The notes beneath the pieces were generated by a model. That model had not been told where the DNA came from. It made no database searches and worked only from the letters and a program-made list of their open reading frames with translations. The position numbers were made by a program, and so were the translations under genes. DNA of 47,657 nucleotides, taken from positions 1 to 47,657 of the IMG/VR virus record IMGVR_UViG_3300043416_000191, one strand, 5' to 3'. Below, one piece after another: positions 16,670-42,759 of the stretch. Position 1 is the first letter of the stretch. Every line of letters starts with the position of its first letter. This DNA comes from a virus (taxonomy: Duplodnaviria; Caudoviricetes).

Positions 16670-18385
16670 TTATGCGTAGTTAGCCAGTTCTGTCATTTGT
16701 AATTGACATAAAACTCTAATGTTTGTTGATGCTGCTCCCGTAAATGTCACATTAATTGCACCGTATGTAGTATCAGCAGACACTGCTATTGTCCACGCTG
16801 GTACATTGGATATAACAGTTACAGTTGACGTTACCATTGTTGTTGATGCAACTGTTCCTTCTTGTCTAATTAAACCCTCAATTACCCATGCTGCGGAAGC
16901 CGTACCATCCAAAGCTTTTTGTCTAGCAACTACTGTGCCTTTGAAATATACAGCACTATTTGGGTATATAGTAGGTAATCGGACAGCAGTAAGTCCCACT
17001 TCCGTTGATAGTTGGATTGGTGTTGCATCAGTGGTAATGGCTCTAATTGGCACCAGTCCTAACTGCCCTTCAGCGGTGGATGTACCGGTGAAACGCAATC
17101 CACTTAGGGCGGTTTTGTTATTAGTCGCTGCAAAAACTTGCGCTCCAAAGGCAAAACTGTTCTGAGCTGTAGACTTGCCTTGTCCGATCATAACTGACGC
17201 TGCCCCAGTAGCTTGTGCGTTTTCGCTACTAGAGCCACTACTTATTGCAACGGAGTAACTTCCTGTTGCTGTACCACGATACCCCATCGCTATGCTGTTT
17301 ACCCCTTGAGCACCATAAGCTGAAGTGTTATTAGAAATTGCAGCAGCAAAAGAGTCAGCACCAGAAGCATATGAAGCACCTAAAGCTACTGCACCAGTTC
17401 CCGGAGATGCGGTAGTTGCACCAGTTGTAAAAGCATTTCCACCCAATGCAACACTATAGTTAGCAGAAGCAGTAGTAAATGCCCCAATCGCTATAGTATA
17501 ATCTGCCGATGCAACACTCCCGTAGTTCCACGCAAAAGACCCAACGCCTGAAGCAGTAGCATTACGACCAAGTGCTAGAGCATTACTACCACTAGCTATT
17601 GGTCGCACATCTGAACTTGGTATGTTATCTGCATACCCTCGCATAGTTTTCTTTGCACCAGTTTCCCAGTTTGTACCATTACAAACGATTTGAGTACCTT
17701 CTCCCCTTCTTAATCGTAATGTGGCTAAACCATCAATAGTCTCTGTTAAATTAGGGTCTATAGTAATAATATCAGTAGAACTAGCCGAAGAATTCCAAAT
17801 CCAAACATTGAACCCAGTACCAAGCGTTGCAGCAGCAGTTAAAGTTGCTGTAAATGTACCTGAAGTCCAGTTTAGAATCGTGCCGTTATCACCAGCAATT
17901 ACTGTATAAGCAGCAGTTTTGTTGCTAATCGTTAAGGTTGAACTACCGCCACCAGCAGGAGTCGCCCACGTTGCATCACCTCGCCAAAATGTAGTTGCTG
18001 ATGCAGCTGTACCTGAATTAAGATTAGCGACAGGAATGTTGCCTAAGCCTTGAGCATTACCAGAAGCATCTCTGATAACAACTTTTCCGGCAGGGTAAGT
18101 AGATATAACCGTAGCCCCTGCTGCGACTGTAATCTTGGTTGTGCCTGAAACACCAGCAATTATTGAAGATGAAACAGTATCACGGCTTAACGTAGTACCA
18201 GCGGCTGTGTAAGTACCTAGTCCAACTTCAGAGTCATTGCCGCTCTTGATCTTGTAATAAGTAGTGTTAGCGTCACCAATAGCCGCAAAGGTTTGAAAGC
18301 CCGTAACAGCACCCGTAAGCGTCAGAGTTCCAACACCCGTTGTGCTAGTTGTTTCTTGAACTAAGTCAGCGAATACGAGTGCCAT
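16670..18385 (-). CDS. Fibre/adhesin protein with YadA-like head repeats
   Basis: MALV.ADLVQETT.TTG.GT.TL.GA start, TFWRGD.TWA knee, and ~14-aa repeats (ASGSNALALG, ASANYSVALG). Confidence 0.75.
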   Translation of the reverse strand: MALVFADLVQETTSTTGVGTLTLTGAVTGFQTFAAIGDANTTYYKIKSGNDSEVGLGTYTAAGTTLSRDTVSSSIIAGVSGTTKITVAAGATVISTYPAGKVVIRDASGNAQGLGNIPVANLNSGTAASATTFWRGDATWATPAGGGSSTLTISNKTAAYTVIAGDNGTILNWTSGTFTATLTAAATLGTGFNVWIWNSSASSTDIITIDPNLTETIDGLATLRLRRGEGTQIVCNGTNWETGAKKTMRGYADNIPSSDVRPIASGSNALALGRNATASGVGSFAWNYGSVASADYTIAIGAFTTASANYSVALGGNAFTTGATTASPGTGAVALGASYASGADSFAAAISNNTSAYGAQGVNSIAMGYRGTATGSYSVAISSGSSSENAQATGAASVMIGQGKSTAQNSFAFGAQVFAATNNKTALSGLRFTGTSTAEGQLGLVPIRAITTDATPIQLSTEVGLTAVRLPTIYPNSAVYFKGTVVARQKALDGTASAAWVIEGLIRQEGTVASTTMVTSTVTVISNVPAWTIAVSADTTYGAINVTFTGAASTNIRVLCQLQMTELANYA

Positions 18386-23449: not shown

Positions 23450-23695
23450 AAGTAAGGTTTCGTAATATTAAAGTAAAAAAATTACTGAGAAATATAACAC
23501 TAAATTGACCGAAAAGTGTAAAGTTTTTTATTTGACACTAGGGTGATTTTACGGGTTTTGTCAGGTTTTGGGGAAAGGCAGACACTTTTTGGGGGGTATC
23601 CACCCCTTTTGATTTCCAGTAACAGTGAAATCAGCTTACGCCACGGGAGCCGTGGCCTGTAGCCTATCAACGCCTGCAGGCCCCGGACCGTATGG

Positions 23696-23767
23696 CCTGA
23701 AGAGCTGCCTGGCCATTTAATTACACGGCTGGCGTACCTGAAGAGCTGCCAGGTTATTTAATGACAC
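23696..23767. repeat. 31-bp imperfect direct repeat, 2 copies 41 bp apart
   Basis: CCTGAAGAGCTGCC(T/A)GG(CC/TT)ATTTAAT(T/G)ACAC at 23696 and 23737. Confidence 0.85.
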
Positions 23768-25738: not shown

Positions 25739-25896
25739 TATTATAGCCAGTACAAGCCTATAATCATTTCATCTTATTGATAATAATCAATAAACCTTTA
25801 AAATTGCGTTCTAAGGCATTTTTAACTTTTATTAGTATCCTAGTATAGGTTTTAATTTAAGCGCCTAGAATCAATCAGAATTAGATATAAAAAAAT

Positions 25897-26215
25897 GAGG
25901 TAAAATCCCTAAAAAGCTTTATTTTAGGTAAATTTTTGAGGTAAAATCCCTAAAAAATGACGTTTTAACTAATTTTTTGAGGTAAAATCCCTAATGAGAA
26001 CATTCTCATTTAAAAACCAAATGATACATTATAACATGTTTTTTCAGTTTTTTTTTGAGTTTTTATTTTATGAAAAAATGAAGTAAAATACCTAAAAAAT
26101 GACTTTTTAACTAATTTTTGAAGTAAAATCCCTAAAAAGCTTTATTTTAGGTAAATTTTTGAGGTAAAATCCCTTTTTTGGTCTAAATGAGAACATTCTC
26201 ATTTAAAAACCAAAT
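25897..26215. repeat. Two triplets of a 14-bp repeat with 40-41 bp period, each closed by an 18-bp palindrome
   Basis: GA(G/A)GTAAAAT(C/A)CCT at 25897, 25938, 25979, 26080, 26120 and 26161. AATGAGAACATTCTCATT at 25993 and 26186. Confidence 0.9.
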
Positions 26216-39834: not shown

Positions 39835-40028
39835 AAATGAAATACCCCCTACTTACTGATACATCTAGGTGTGTAGGTAGTAAGTGCGATCAGAAGAACA
39901 TTTGCCAGCGATACCTGACCATTGAATTAGACTCATCACCCATGCAATGGTTTATGGACGCCAGTGTTGAGCTGACCTATACCAACGATGACGCCTGTGA
40001 TTTCCTTATACCGTTTGGAGGTGAGTGA
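39831..40028 (+). CDS. Small Cys-rich phage protein
   Basis: D.SRC.G..C.....CQRY...C.F. Confidence 0.6.
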   Translation: MKMKYPLLTDTSRCVGSKCDQKNICQRYLTIELDSSPMQWFMDASVELTYTNDDACDFLIPFGGE

Positions 40029-40354
40029 TGAGTAAAGAAAGAGAGTTGTTGGAAAGAGTTAAAGCTGAAGGGTATATTAGTTTTGGACTATACAAAGAAA
40101 TCGAAAAACTCCTCGCCCAACCTGAGCAAGAGCCTGAGCCTCTTTTAGCAGAAACAAAGATTGAATGGTATGGGAAAGGGTTTAGACAAGGGGTCAATGA
40201 GTTTGCACCACCCAAACCCTTAACAGAAGATGTTATATATGCTCTTGATAAAGAAGGGGTTGTTGAAAATATGGACGATCATCAAGTCAGATACGTCATT
40301 AGATGGATAAGAAGAGTAGAAAAAGCACATGGCATTGGAGGTGGTAATGAGTAA
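40028..40354 (+). CDS. Mosaic MSKERELL-family protein, cassette 1
   Basis: Boxes A (MSKERELL), B (LLAQPEQEP), C (APPKPLT) and D (EKAHGIG). Confidence 0.75.
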   Translation: MSKERELLERVKAEGYISFGLYKEIEKLLAQPEQEPEPLLAETKIEWYGKGFRQGVNEFAPPKPLTEDVIYALDKEGVVENMDDHQVRYVIRWIRRVEKAHGIGGGNE

Positions 40355-40763
40355 AGAAAGAGAGTTGTTGGTAAGGATTGTAGAGGCGAACATGGTGCAG
40401 TACATGGAACTAATGGATGAAGCTGAAGAACTCCTCGCCCAACCTGAACTGTCAACTGATAGCTATCAGTTGACTGAGCAAGCGCCTGTGGCTTGGATGT
40501 ATGACCATCATATAGCAGTTGGGCATGATAAATATACTGAATTCAATATTGTTGAAACTTGTGCAAGGAATTTAGAATCTGAAAATTGTATTAATGTTCG
40601 TCCACTTTACCTAGCACCACCAAAACGTGAGCAAAAGCCATTAACACGACAACAAATAAGCGAGGGTAATCAATCAATGCTTAATGTTACGAGAGATGCT
40701 TTTGTAAACGGTGCTAAGTGGGCTGAAAAAGCACACGGTATAACTGGAGAGAATGATGAATAA
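40347..40763 (+). CDS. Mosaic MSKERELL-family protein, cassette 2
   Basis: Start at 40347 after GGAGGTGG. Boxes A, B (LLAQPE...EQAPVAW), C (PLYLAPPKRE) and D (EKAHGITG). Confidence 0.75.
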   Translation: MSKERELLVRIVEANMVQYMELMDEAEELLAQPELSTDSYQLTEQAPVAWMYDHHIAVGHDKYTEFNIVETCARNLESENCINVRPLYLAPPKREQKPLTRQQISEGNQSMLNVTRDAFVNGAKWAEKAHGITGENDE

Positions 40764-41163
40764 AGAAAGAGAGTTACTAATAAGAGCACGAGATGTATTG
40801 CGCGGACTAAAAGAAACCCATTATCACTTATATTGGGACATACAGACTGCACTAGACCAACCTGAGCAAGAGCCTGTTGGTATTGTAATAACTATTGGAG
40901 GCTACCCAGACGACTCTGAGCATACAGTTAAATTAACATGTAGACATAGAGACTTAAAGGATGGGGATTTGCTCTACACAGCACCACCTAAACAAGAACC
41001 TATCAACTTTGATTTAGAACGGATGAAGCTGGCTGTGGCACCTGTGTCAGATGTTACGGTAGAGGGTTTAATAAATAAGGTTAAAAGTAATAGAGTATTT
41101 TATCAAGAAGGCTATGCGCAAGCATTGGTAGATTTCAAAAAACAAAATCAGCACACGGTATAG
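40753..41163 (+). CDS. Mosaic MSKERELL-family protein, cassette 3
   Basis: MNKERELL, QPEQEPVG and LYTAPPKQEP. Box D is present in the DNA but out of frame. Confidence 0.72.
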   Translation: MMNKERELLIRARDVLRGLKETHYHLYWDIQTALDQPEQEPVGIVITIGGYPDDSEHTVKLTCRHRDLKDGDLLYTAPPKQEPINFDLERMKLAVAPVSDVTVEGLINKVKSNRVFYQEGYAQALVDFKKQNQHTV

Positions 41164-41169
41164 GGGTAG

Positions 41170-41334
41170 ATGATGAATGATGCAGAAAAGTTAACATATG
41201 ACGCACTTTTGACGGCGTTGAGACTGTCAGAGACGAGCGCAAAAGGGTATCACCTAGATAAGCTAGAAAAGTTTGTAGGGGTGGTTAACATTAGAATCCA
41301 TAAAGCCATACCAGAAGGATGGGAGATACCATGA
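41170..41334 (+). CDS. Hypothetical 54-aa protein (not in ORF track)
   Basis: MMNDAEKLTYDALLTALRLSETSAKGYHLDKLEKFVGVVNIRIHKAIPEGWEIP. The second copy differs mainly at synonymous sites, which supports coding. Confidence 0.65.
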   Translation: MMNDAEKLTYDALLTALRLSETSAKGYHLDKLEKFVGVVNIRIHKAIPEGWEIP

Positions 41335-41498
41335 CTGACGAGCAATTACTAGAATATCGTAATACACAACTACTTGGATTACGAGAAGAAAATAGAAAGT
41401 TACGAGAAGATTTACGAGAAGGTTTACGAGAAGAAATATCCTTACGTGACGCAACGAACGATGGCTTAATTACTTCTGCTGATGCATCTAAAACGTGA
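41331..41498 (+). pseudogene. Small gene apparently truncated at its SLRD motif by the captured insert
   Basis: MTDEQLLEY...LREENRKLREDLREGLREEISLRD then runs into foreign sequence. TTACGAGAAG repeats at 41379, 41400, 41412 and 41424. Confidence 0.5.
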
Positions 41499-41596
41499 TT
41501 TTGAAAGAGGGAAAATAGATCAAGCCACTTGTAAGGTGATTTTCTTAGTAGGCCATAGTAAAGGTTATAACCATCAACATAAACAATTGTACGCAT
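41465..41596 (-). pseudogene. 5' fragment (~44 codons) of a NYN/LabA-DUF88 PIN-like RNase gene
   Basis: MRTIVYVDGYNLYYGLL..SPYKWLDL is the NYN N-terminal signature. Similarity ends near SAEVIK, where the frame runs into antisense phage sequence. Confidence 0.8.
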
Positions 41597-41615
41597 TTAC
41601 TTTGTTAGATACCTA

Positions 41616-41693
41616 AAATGACAAAGCCGCCCGAAGGCGGCCTGTCGCCCCAAGAGCGAACCGGAAATCCGGACGGTCAAGGGGGGAGTCGTG
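41616..41693 (-). ncRNA. Putative structured small RNA ending in a terminator-like hairpin, upstream of the NYN fragment
   Basis: GC-rich. CCCC/GGGG stem, CCGGA-UU-UCCGG inverted repeat, then GACAGGCCGCC-UUCG-GGCGGCUUUGUC-AUUUU. Confidence 0.6.
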
Positions 41694-41698
41694 GCTAT

Positions 41699-41727
41699 AG
41701 TTTAGATAAAAATGTGATGACATGCAA
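41699..41727 (-). promoter_or_regulatory. Sigma70 promoter, antisense to the surrounding phage operon
   Basis: TTGCAT-17 nt-TAAACT on the minus strand. Confidence 0.65.
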
Positions 41728-41899
41728 GATAGAGGACTAAATTATCACTAGAGGACTTATGACTGTCAGAGACCAGCGCAAAAGGGTATCACCTAGATAA
41801 GCTAGAAAAGTTTGTAGGGGTGGTCAATATTAGACTCCATAAAGCACTGCCAAAAGGCTGGGAAATACCATGCGATTAATAACCCTTTTGGGGATGAAG

Positions 41900-42274
41900 A
41901 TGAGTAAAGAAAGAGAACTATTAAAAGAGTGTAGATTGATGCTTGCTAATCCTATCAATGGCACAGCAGGGATAAACTTGCAAATTAGGATAACTGAACT
42001 AATTGCCCAGCCTGAGCATATTGTTGATGTTACCGATAAGGTAGAGCCTGTTGCAAATATACTAGAGCATGAAATATTTATAGAAAGGGTTTTAACTAGA
42101 GCAATGGGTAAAAATACTATATCCCTGCTTGACCACTTTGCTGGCTTGGCTATGCAGTCCTTGTTGACAAAAGTATCTACTACAGTGGGATCAGATTCAG
42201 TTGCTATGGCTGCATACCACGTGGCACATCAAATGTTAAAGGAAAGAAGTAGGGGGGAGAAAAGAGATGAGTAA
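41900..42274 (+). CDS. Mosaic MSKERELL-family protein, cassette 4
   Basis: Boxes A and B (IAQPEH...EPVA) fused to the SLLDHFAGLAMQ...AY.VA..ML.ER domain. Confidence 0.72.
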   Translation: MSKERELLKECRLMLANPINGTAGINLQIRITELIAQPEHIVDVTDKVEPVANILEHEIFIERVLTRAMGKNTISLLDHFAGLAMQSLLTKVSTTVGSDSVAMAAYHVAHQMLKERSRGEKRDE

Positions 42275-42506
42275 AGAAAGAGAGCTGTTACAAAGGCTAG
42301 TTAGTGCAGAGTTGAACGATATTTTTGATTTGTTAGTTGAAGCACAACAACTACTTGCCCAACCTGAGCAAGAGCCTTTTGCGGTTGTAGCAAACAATTC
42401 AGTTGGTTTTGATGTATCACGCTCACCACAGGGTATGCCATTGGTTTGGCTAGGTAAACTGGAGTACGGAGATAAACTTTATAGAGTGAGGGCTAGAGAT
42501 GAATAA
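42267..42506 (+). CDS. Mosaic MSKERELL-family protein, cassette 5
   Basis: MSKERELL, LLAQPEQEP and G.KLY. Confidence 0.75.
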   Translation: MSKERELLQRLVSAELNDIFDLLVEAQQLLAQPEQEPFAVVANNSVGFDVSRSPQGMPLVWLGKLEYGDKLYRVRARDE

Positions 42507-42759
42507 AGACCAGCAAAAAACAGTAAATGAAATGCTTGACGCTATGGAGTTAGATACCTATGGTGAGAAAGGCTTAAAAGAAATAATAAGGCAACTGGTT
42601 GTTGAAATGGTAAAGCAGTCAGCACCACCAAAACGTGCGCCTATATTTAATTACATATCTCCTGACTATATCACAGGCGAATATTTAGAAGCTTACGATT
42701 TAGGGTTTAGTGATGCAGAAAAAGCTCACGGTATAACTGGAGTAGATGATGATAATTAG
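42499..42759 (+). CDS. Mosaic family protein, cassette 6
   Basis: ATGAATAAAGA start, SAPPKRAP and AEKAHGITGVDD. Confidence 0.7.
   Translation: MNKDQQKTVNEMLDAMELDTYGEKGLKEIIRQLVVEMVKQSAPPKRAPIFNYISPDYITGEYLEAYDLGFSDAEKAHGITGVDDDN

Follow-up and report, generated by a model that had tools for sequence, protein, structure and literature searches.

The closest described relatives of the locus reported here are modules in which an RNA precedes a nuclease. ToxIN brings together a promoter, an RNA, a terminator and a nuclease in one unit, as here, and the account of phage phiTE-F describes a hijacked ToxI, the phage having gained the RNA part by recombination, also as here (PMC3475682). The closest architecture is that of RCd22-AbiF. 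As described in 10.1101/2025.04.15.648962, an RNA of about 100 nt with hairpins and with its own promoter and terminator lies before the nuclease, an arrangement again like ours; the two are co-transcribed by read-through, and the RNA acts in cis and in trans. The nuclease of our locus resembles HEC-09. The source for HEC-09 (10.1101/2024.01.29.577857) presents it as a single gene, and its main text contains the words 'non-coding' or 'noncoding' 0 times. The HEC-09 representative, cloned there with about 150 bp of upstream DNA, is described as failing to protect E. coli from any of the phages tried; the same account notes toxicity only for HEC-03 and HEC-04. Pfam NYN (PF01936) is also common to our proteins and the LabA/DUF88 NYN.COG1432 group, whose members are often labelled HspA monooxygenase. 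The description of that group in PMC5499597 doubts that the NYN domain does nicotine chemistry and gives it no RNA partner or toxin role. Our search of the open-licence PMC and bioRxiv literature found no description of an NYN-linked RNA antitoxin.

The window, meaning the whole stretch of DNA analysed (47,657 bp), is a complete virus record from freshwater with direct terminal repeats. Its PHROGs matches are those of a contractile-tailed phage with a DNA polymerase, a primase, a helicase and a methyltransferase, and the polymerase is <50% identical to that of any GenBank phage. The phage is likely lytic, because no integrase was found among the two sets of window ORFs checked (55 and 13). No clear CRISPR spacer match to the 13.7 kb of phage used as query was found in 401 genomes. 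Phage-like contigs are present in three of these genomes; they give a hint of Methylococcales as the host, and only a hint because the scan covered one order with no control order. Elsewhere in the window, TGAGGTAAAATCCCT-like motifs recur in an AT-rich gene-free stretch (25890-26180) that is possibly a replication origin, and a 571-aa ORF with YadA head repeats lies amid head genes (16673-18385) and is possibly a capsid fibre or adhesin. A GC-rich intergenic patch with a repeated CCTGAAGAGCTGCC motif (23620-23760) separates the divergent late and early regions and has no Rfam match. The segment of interest sits among small genes that resemble one another and form a rightward array, highly mosaic across related phages. 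Many small genes at 40017-42752 have a common MSKERELL start and QPEQEP motifs, and they are shuffled across dozens of related phage contigs as a modular recombination cassette system.

Positions 41469-41760 (292 bp, minus strand) are a recent capture from a bacterial locus that continues into an NYN gene. Contigs from X6 and X12, two public runs, align over precisely this span with 290 of 292 bases identical (differences at 41685 and 41700) and diverge at both ends, running at one end into further NYN codons (EVRYYTAPVK) and at the other into unrelated DNA. A contig from X18 diverges likewise at 41469. An earlier note, made from the letters alone, had proposed a foreign segment of about 270 bp; its foreign origin stands, and its size is revised to 292 bp. 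That the donor NYN is complete is inferred from the full-length protein P0002 and not read from the donor contigs. Both differences between phage and donor lie inside family variation or are neutral with respect to the consensus: the -10 reads TAAATT in the donor and TAAACT in the phage, each matching the consensus at 4/6 bases, and the A to C change at RNA position 8 is also present in homologues. The donor search that the earlier note called for was successful for the allele and not for the organism: matches in 12 of 401 genomes of the order of genome G001 reached 77-78% at best; the RNA model matched one of 64 family genomes.

Repeats flank the insert, and runs X6 and X12 hold both the phage and the donor allele, as might be expected if phage and bacterial reads had been joined in an assembly chimera. 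The probability of such an artefact, which the earlier note had raised against itself, is negligible. In X1, which may be related to the window's source sample, a 549-bp contig covers 41256-41804 with zero differences and spans both junctions at a depth of 19.9 (18.3 and 19.6 in the flanking phage contigs of 15 and 32 kb), and no joint skipping the insert was found in that run. X13 crosses the left junction with 41 letters, whereas crossings of just 30 letters in X6 and X12 were left uncounted, and the phage allele itself differs from the donor at two sites. These comparisons draw on 20 runs; half or more of the sampled words occur in 11 of them (from 8 studies), and 8 of the 20 were compared in detail. 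Three RNA libraries also yielded contigs (phage allele in X17, covering the insert only; donor allele in X18 and X19; depth ~3, unstranded). They reach upstream of the promoter, come from runs chosen for holding this stretch, and have unreadable strand and ends, so we do not count them as evidence of expression.

Beyond what the earlier note described, the insert also cuts a phage gene at 41450. The small gene at 41331-41450 (plus strand) stops there, whereas its relatives go on into ...DHFAGLAMQ; all seven related loci displayed extend beyond this point, and the broken gene has paralogues nearby. The left junction holds 18 nt of filler (41451-41468) with no match of at least 12 nt elsewhere in the window or in the loci compared. 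A 112-nt repeat lies on either side (both plus strand). Copy 1 (41222-41333) is the 3' part of a 54-aa gene (41170-41334), and copy 2 (41761-41872), 91% identical, is a 5'-truncated paralogue of that gene and abuts the insert. The 54-aa gene is present just once in a related X12 contig (joint 41228 to 41789). We considered a target-site duplication and rejected it, because the repeats are far more diverged from each other (9%) than the insert is from the donor (0.7%). Viral contigs gave no match to an exact 26-nt pattern drawn from the flanking repeat.

Of the nuclease gene, the capture includes just the first fifth. The fragment (41469-41596, minus strand, 128 bp) starts with an ATG at 41596 and comprises 42 codons plus 2 nt, slightly fewer than the roughly 44 codons first proposed, and its frame runs into phage DNA to give a 101-aa chimeric frame (41291-41596). 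Its identity as a truncated NYN gene is confirmed by P0002, a 217-aa NYN protein to which it is identical at 43 of 44 residues. The longer proteins that match the fragment number 367 (E <= 0.001), and the rest of the phage genome has no other NYN match. At E <= 0.001 the sole Pfam match of P0002 is PF01936. The PADLOC HEC-09 model matched 3/3 full-length proteins at E about 1e-31 to 1e-33 (P0002 at 1.7e-33, over its full length) and the window fragment at E 9e-9; NCBIfam matched none of four proteins, and a sequence search of the PDB gave no match. An AlphaFold model of P0002 (pLDDT 91.9), with VPA0982 and MARF1 NYN as its top Foldseek matches, supports a predicted NYN fold. Relatives are named LabA/DUF88 and HspA in databases, and the family is present on 449 plasmid records. 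Aligned proteins have D8 in 29/30 and D121, D146 and D148 in 30/30, residues presumed to be catalytic from what is generally understood about PIN/NYN active sites. Of these the fragment retains D8 and lacks the other three, so the nuclease is indeed cut before its other catalytic residues, as had been noticed at the outset.

In front of the fragment lie a predicted -35 hexamer TTGCAT (41722-41727) and, after a spacer of 17 nt, a predicted -10 hexamer TAAACT (41699-41704) that ends 6 nt before the RNA, all on the minus strand. A simple consensus scan missed this promoter because just 8 of 12 bases match; it is nevertheless in register with its homologues, as TTG occurs at the matching place in 41/74 homologous loci and 69/74 non-duplicate loci have a TA...T hexamer whose end lies 5-7 nt upstream of the RNA (1-7 in control windows). 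The structured RNA itself (41615-41692, minus strand) is 78 nt long and consists of an unpaired conserved leader ACGACUC, an interrupted hairpin and a terminator hairpin. The earlier note had described both the promoter and a GC-rich folded RNA of about 75 nt ending in a hairpin, and these observations hold. The GC content of the RNA is 63% (37.5% for the genome), a richness reached by 0.08% of 78-nt windows, and the fold z is -3.76 for the RNA and -5.4 for the terminal hairpin. The first hairpin (P1/P2, 41648-41684, minus strand) has conserved internal loops and 10/14 pairs changed on both sides, and is the predicted protein-binding unit. The terminator hairpin (41620-41646, minus strand), with an interrupted U-rich tail, is paired in 99% of cells, shows double changes in 7/11 pairs and is the sole terminator-like site in 41200-42000. 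The RNA forms a single unit with no repeats and scores 89.7 bits with our covariance model, in whose training set the window is included.

The link between NYN genes and an upstream RNA, conjectured in the earlier note from this locus, recurs widely. We assembled 91 NYN loci (the best 80 of 127 bacterial loci and 11 viral ones) and detected the RNA upstream of 87 with the covariance model (E <= 0.1), five of these matches being weak or partial and 54 of the 91 loci having sat in the training alignment. Among the four loci with no model match, one has 22 nt upstream and three have other hairpin-plus-terminator leaders. The alignment comprises 57 sequences (54 loci, the window and two Thiothrix plasmid copies), with divergent leaders and exact duplicates excluded. 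Within it, 17 of 25 pairs are changed on both sides, a number that 0/500 shuffles reach, and pairing is 93.5% compared with 33-57% in slid controls. Relatedness of the sequences can inflate the shuffle test, yet covariation by chance is unlikely given the slid control and how many independent pair types occur. The unpaired leader is nearly invariant (columns 1, 4, 5 and 6 completely so across the 57 sequences), which suggests sequence-specific binding, and lengths of 77-79 nt speak against a coding role. Rfam holds no family for the insert region (two chance matches at E <= 5) or for the whole window, and NYN leaders in 14 loci matched only plasmid RNAI. No pseudoknot was found, as judged by helices of >=3 bp between unpaired columns at 85%. 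By these comparisons the RNA represents a new family, conserved and linked to NYN, whatever its mechanism.

The position of the RNA invites another reading, in which it is a cis-acting leader, an attenuator through which NYN, by binding or cutting it, restrains its own production. NYN would then be a mild RNA-processing enzyme and no toxin, and the phage copy would be inert or at most perturb NYN levels. In most loci the terminator lies about 12-20 nt ahead of the start codon. An alternative 6-bp helix between the first hairpin and the 3' strand of the terminator is possible in 96.8% of cells (double-sided in 5; 0/500 shuffles as high) and fits cis control equally well; its support, however, comes largely from a G opposite either C or U. 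Columns 3-5 were also tested for pairing with columns 75-77, as in a leader-to-terminator switch, which is unsupported because 86/500 shuffles score as high. The lack of defence described for HEC-09 (10.1101/2024.01.29.577857) and the gene context that, in the account of PMC5499597, ties bacterial NYN domains to tRNA or rRNA processing are both in line with a cis leader. Stand-alone promoter-RNA-terminator copies (L041, L045, L002) and a 120-aa gene inserted between RNA and NYN (L003), by contrast, lack a cis purpose, and NYN is often lost while the RNA is retained. Cis and trans action can also coexist, as described for RCd22-AbiF (10.1101/2025.04.15.648962). Overall, we regard a purely cis-acting leader as quite unlikely.

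Gene loss and copy number at these loci fit an antitoxin, as far as genome comparison can indicate. Pattern scans gave 17 viral and at least 120 metagenome matches, of which 5 and 57, respectively, were dropped for short downstream DNA. Among the 63 metagenome matches listed with >=760 nt downstream, NYN is intact in 38 and not intact in 25 (broken full-length in 8, partial in 8, no trace in 9), and among 12 such viral RNAs it is intact in 6, broken in 2 and without trace in 4; some of the frameshifts may be assembly errors. Where enough upstream DNA was available, no locus showed the converse, an NYN with no leader. We note that a promoter-bearing leader would by itself tend to yield this asymmetry of RNA kept and NYN lost. 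The RNA is also multiplied. For instance, three separate promoter-RNA-terminator units stand ahead of NYN in one Duganella locus (L041:4519-4989), an extra RNA unit follows NYN in another (L045:5713-5796), and a 4.6-kb mobilisable plasmid (L372:1243-1400) has four tandem ACAAC-plus-hairpin units, then a terminator, then NYN. Several hairpins before NYN were also seen by eye in L373:460-690 and L377:280-420. One Thiothrix plasmid carries the RNA, the 120-aa gene and NYN in that order, and another the RNA with no annotated NYN within 3 kb. Five of nine plasmid or prophage loci matched the model at E < 1e-4 with a single-unit leader, while the RNA model gave no match in the Mycobacterium prophage L378.

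Other features of these loci are recorded as side observations. Small enterobacterial plasmids carry NYN behind tandem leader-plus-hairpin units that resemble type III antitoxin arrays, and would be convenient test material. Genome G002, which also has an intact cassette, holds a second, NYN-less RNA copy (L331:1501-1579) beside GTGGCGACA repeats, next to a putatively KilA-N-like gene. At the 44 NYN loci whose surroundings were compared, housekeeping genes predominate and a handful of the loci adjoin Xre-RES, RelB, type I restriction, Fic or conjugation genes, a pattern that counts against the decoy reading given below.

A second phage lineage, with holin and small terminase matches in L198, carries an NYN-less RNA. 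Contigs L198 and L227 share an 847-bp segment with the promoter and the RNA (L198:472-550, L227:1964-2042) and hold only 550-670 nt after it; the RNA also adjoins a run of GCGCCCT repeats. This RNA is 97% identical to that of Agitococcus (L017), whereas the flanks are 45-47% identical, and the two differences between the RNAs form one compensatory pair. Five other NYN-less copies (L194, L196, L201, L204, L268) occupy a primase / ParB-methyltransferase slot that carries the whole cassette in L005, L085 and L088-L092, and they look like loss in place and not capture. The slot is prophage-like and holds cargo, sometimes with a MazE-like or other small gene. Two further candidates were rejected, L205 because it is the same contig as L095 with the NYN start at the contig end, and L381 because its NYN is decayed in a context that does not look like phage. 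GenBank phages contain three NYN genes and, with four RNA variants as queries, no NYN-less RNA; RNA patterns of the distant clades gave 1, 1 and 0 matches in viral contigs. The orientation of the copies raises the question whether the phage uses the fragment for its own regulation, with the antisense promoter damping the rightward operon and the RNA sequence incidental. The promoter in the window does point against the operon, and the L198 copy likewise lies on the strand opposite the phage operon. We nevertheless hold this to be very improbable: the terminator would end most antisense transcripts after 78 nt, the hairpin read on the plus strand is without a U tract, and the L198 promoter is divergent from its operon and not convergent with it.

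A more serious alternative accepts a real RNA-antitoxin module and treats the capture as a neutral passenger, brought by illegitimate recombination into a mosaic accessory region. Purging would remove any fragment whose nuclease was intact, and a survivor would look like this one without needing to aid the phage. The capture is very recent (290/292), and the RNA is absent from all 80 related loci searched with the covariance model. The surrounding gene array is highly mosaic and tolerates junk, which counts against a decoy, and the gene that the insert broke has paralogues close by. The 63 metagenome matches listed include eight partial NYN remnants behind intact RNAs, and RNAs with a truncated NYN, or with none, occur commonly both in bacterial DNA and in prophages. 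The layout of the window alone is thus no proof of a decoy, as decay alone can give it, and the capture, just 2 changes away from its donor, is too recent to carry a signal of selection. Against a neutral passenger, the 292 bp run from promoter to terminator with merely 33 bp to spare upstream, the insert stands at full phage depth in X1 despite the flanking repeats and its junction recurs in X13, and the L198/L227 phage retains its NYN-less RNA under apparent constraint. We consider a neutral passenger rather unlikely.

The reading that we prefer is that the phage carries the RNA as a decoy. A bacterial sigma-70 promoter would yield abundant short RNA, and a small amount of nuclease mRNA would arise from transcripts that pass the leaky terminator. 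The leader-plus-hairpin unit would bind NYN and keep the nuclease inactive, as in type III toxin-antitoxin or AbiF modules, until infection depletes the RNA and frees the nuclease. The host-type promoter in the phage would then supply extra RNA with no nuclease, and this supply would be the reason why the fragment was kept. That the RNA is an NYN-binding antitoxin in a new type-III-like RNA-NYN module is in our judgement probable, and if it is, a decoy role for the phage copy is somewhat favoured. The complete model, capture of promoter and RNA as a decoy against an NYN nuclease, remains tentative, with the arguments on both sides nearly in balance. The earlier note had arrived at the same decoy, which is still the best single reading and is partly supported, through its structural and evolutionary steps. 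We put forward with somewhat greater reserve the wider view that HEC-09/LabA-type NYN proteins constitute a widespread, undescribed RNA-antitoxin class that defends against phages, and that wild phages repeatedly stole its promoter and RNA. With the same reserve, the PIN-like fold in such a class might be held in check by one or several leader-plus-hairpin units.

If the decoy model is true, a PIN-like nuclease fold joins the RNA-antitoxin systems, and a plasmid-borne family annotated as 'NYN domain protein' or monooxygenase gains a function and a regulator. It would also offer a possible reason for the negative result of HEC-09 cloned together with its upstream DNA, although that result fits a neutralised toxin and a harmless enzyme equally. 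Finally, it would provide a natural case of the antitoxin theft known from lab-selected phiTE-F, with the donor allele in the same samples.

Compared with known systems, the locus has the unit of promoter, RNA, terminator and nuclease that led the earlier note to invoke a type III layout, and it is not ToxIN. ToxIN has a ToxN-family toxin, whereas the nuclease here has a NYN/PIN-like fold and P0002 has no ToxN match. The antitoxin of ToxIN consists of tandem repeats; here there is a single unit in the window and the main clade, with arrays in distant homologues such as L372. ToxI is pseudoknotted, which we did not find for this RNA, and the RNA has neither a ToxI nor any other Rfam match. AbiF, as described, is an Abi_2 family protein of Bacillota and Pseudomonadota with an RNA in Rfam RF03085 (10.1101/2025.04.15.648962), and neither matches here. 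The RNA-NYN module would thus work like a type III or AbiF module and yet belong to neither ToxIN nor AbiF. With HEC-09 it shares the protein family, given the full-length match of P0002 to the PADLOC model and its predicted MARF1-like NYN fold. The phiTE-F case, in the account of PMC3475682, was selected in the laboratory and relied on homologous recombination with a pseudo-ToxI, whereas the capture in the window is natural, includes the host promoter and shows no homology of that kind. The orphan antitoxins that phages are described as carrying against DarTG (PMC11825919, 10.1101/2023.12.14.571748) are alike in being an antidote with no toxin; those antidotes are proteins, and the one proposed here would be an RNA.
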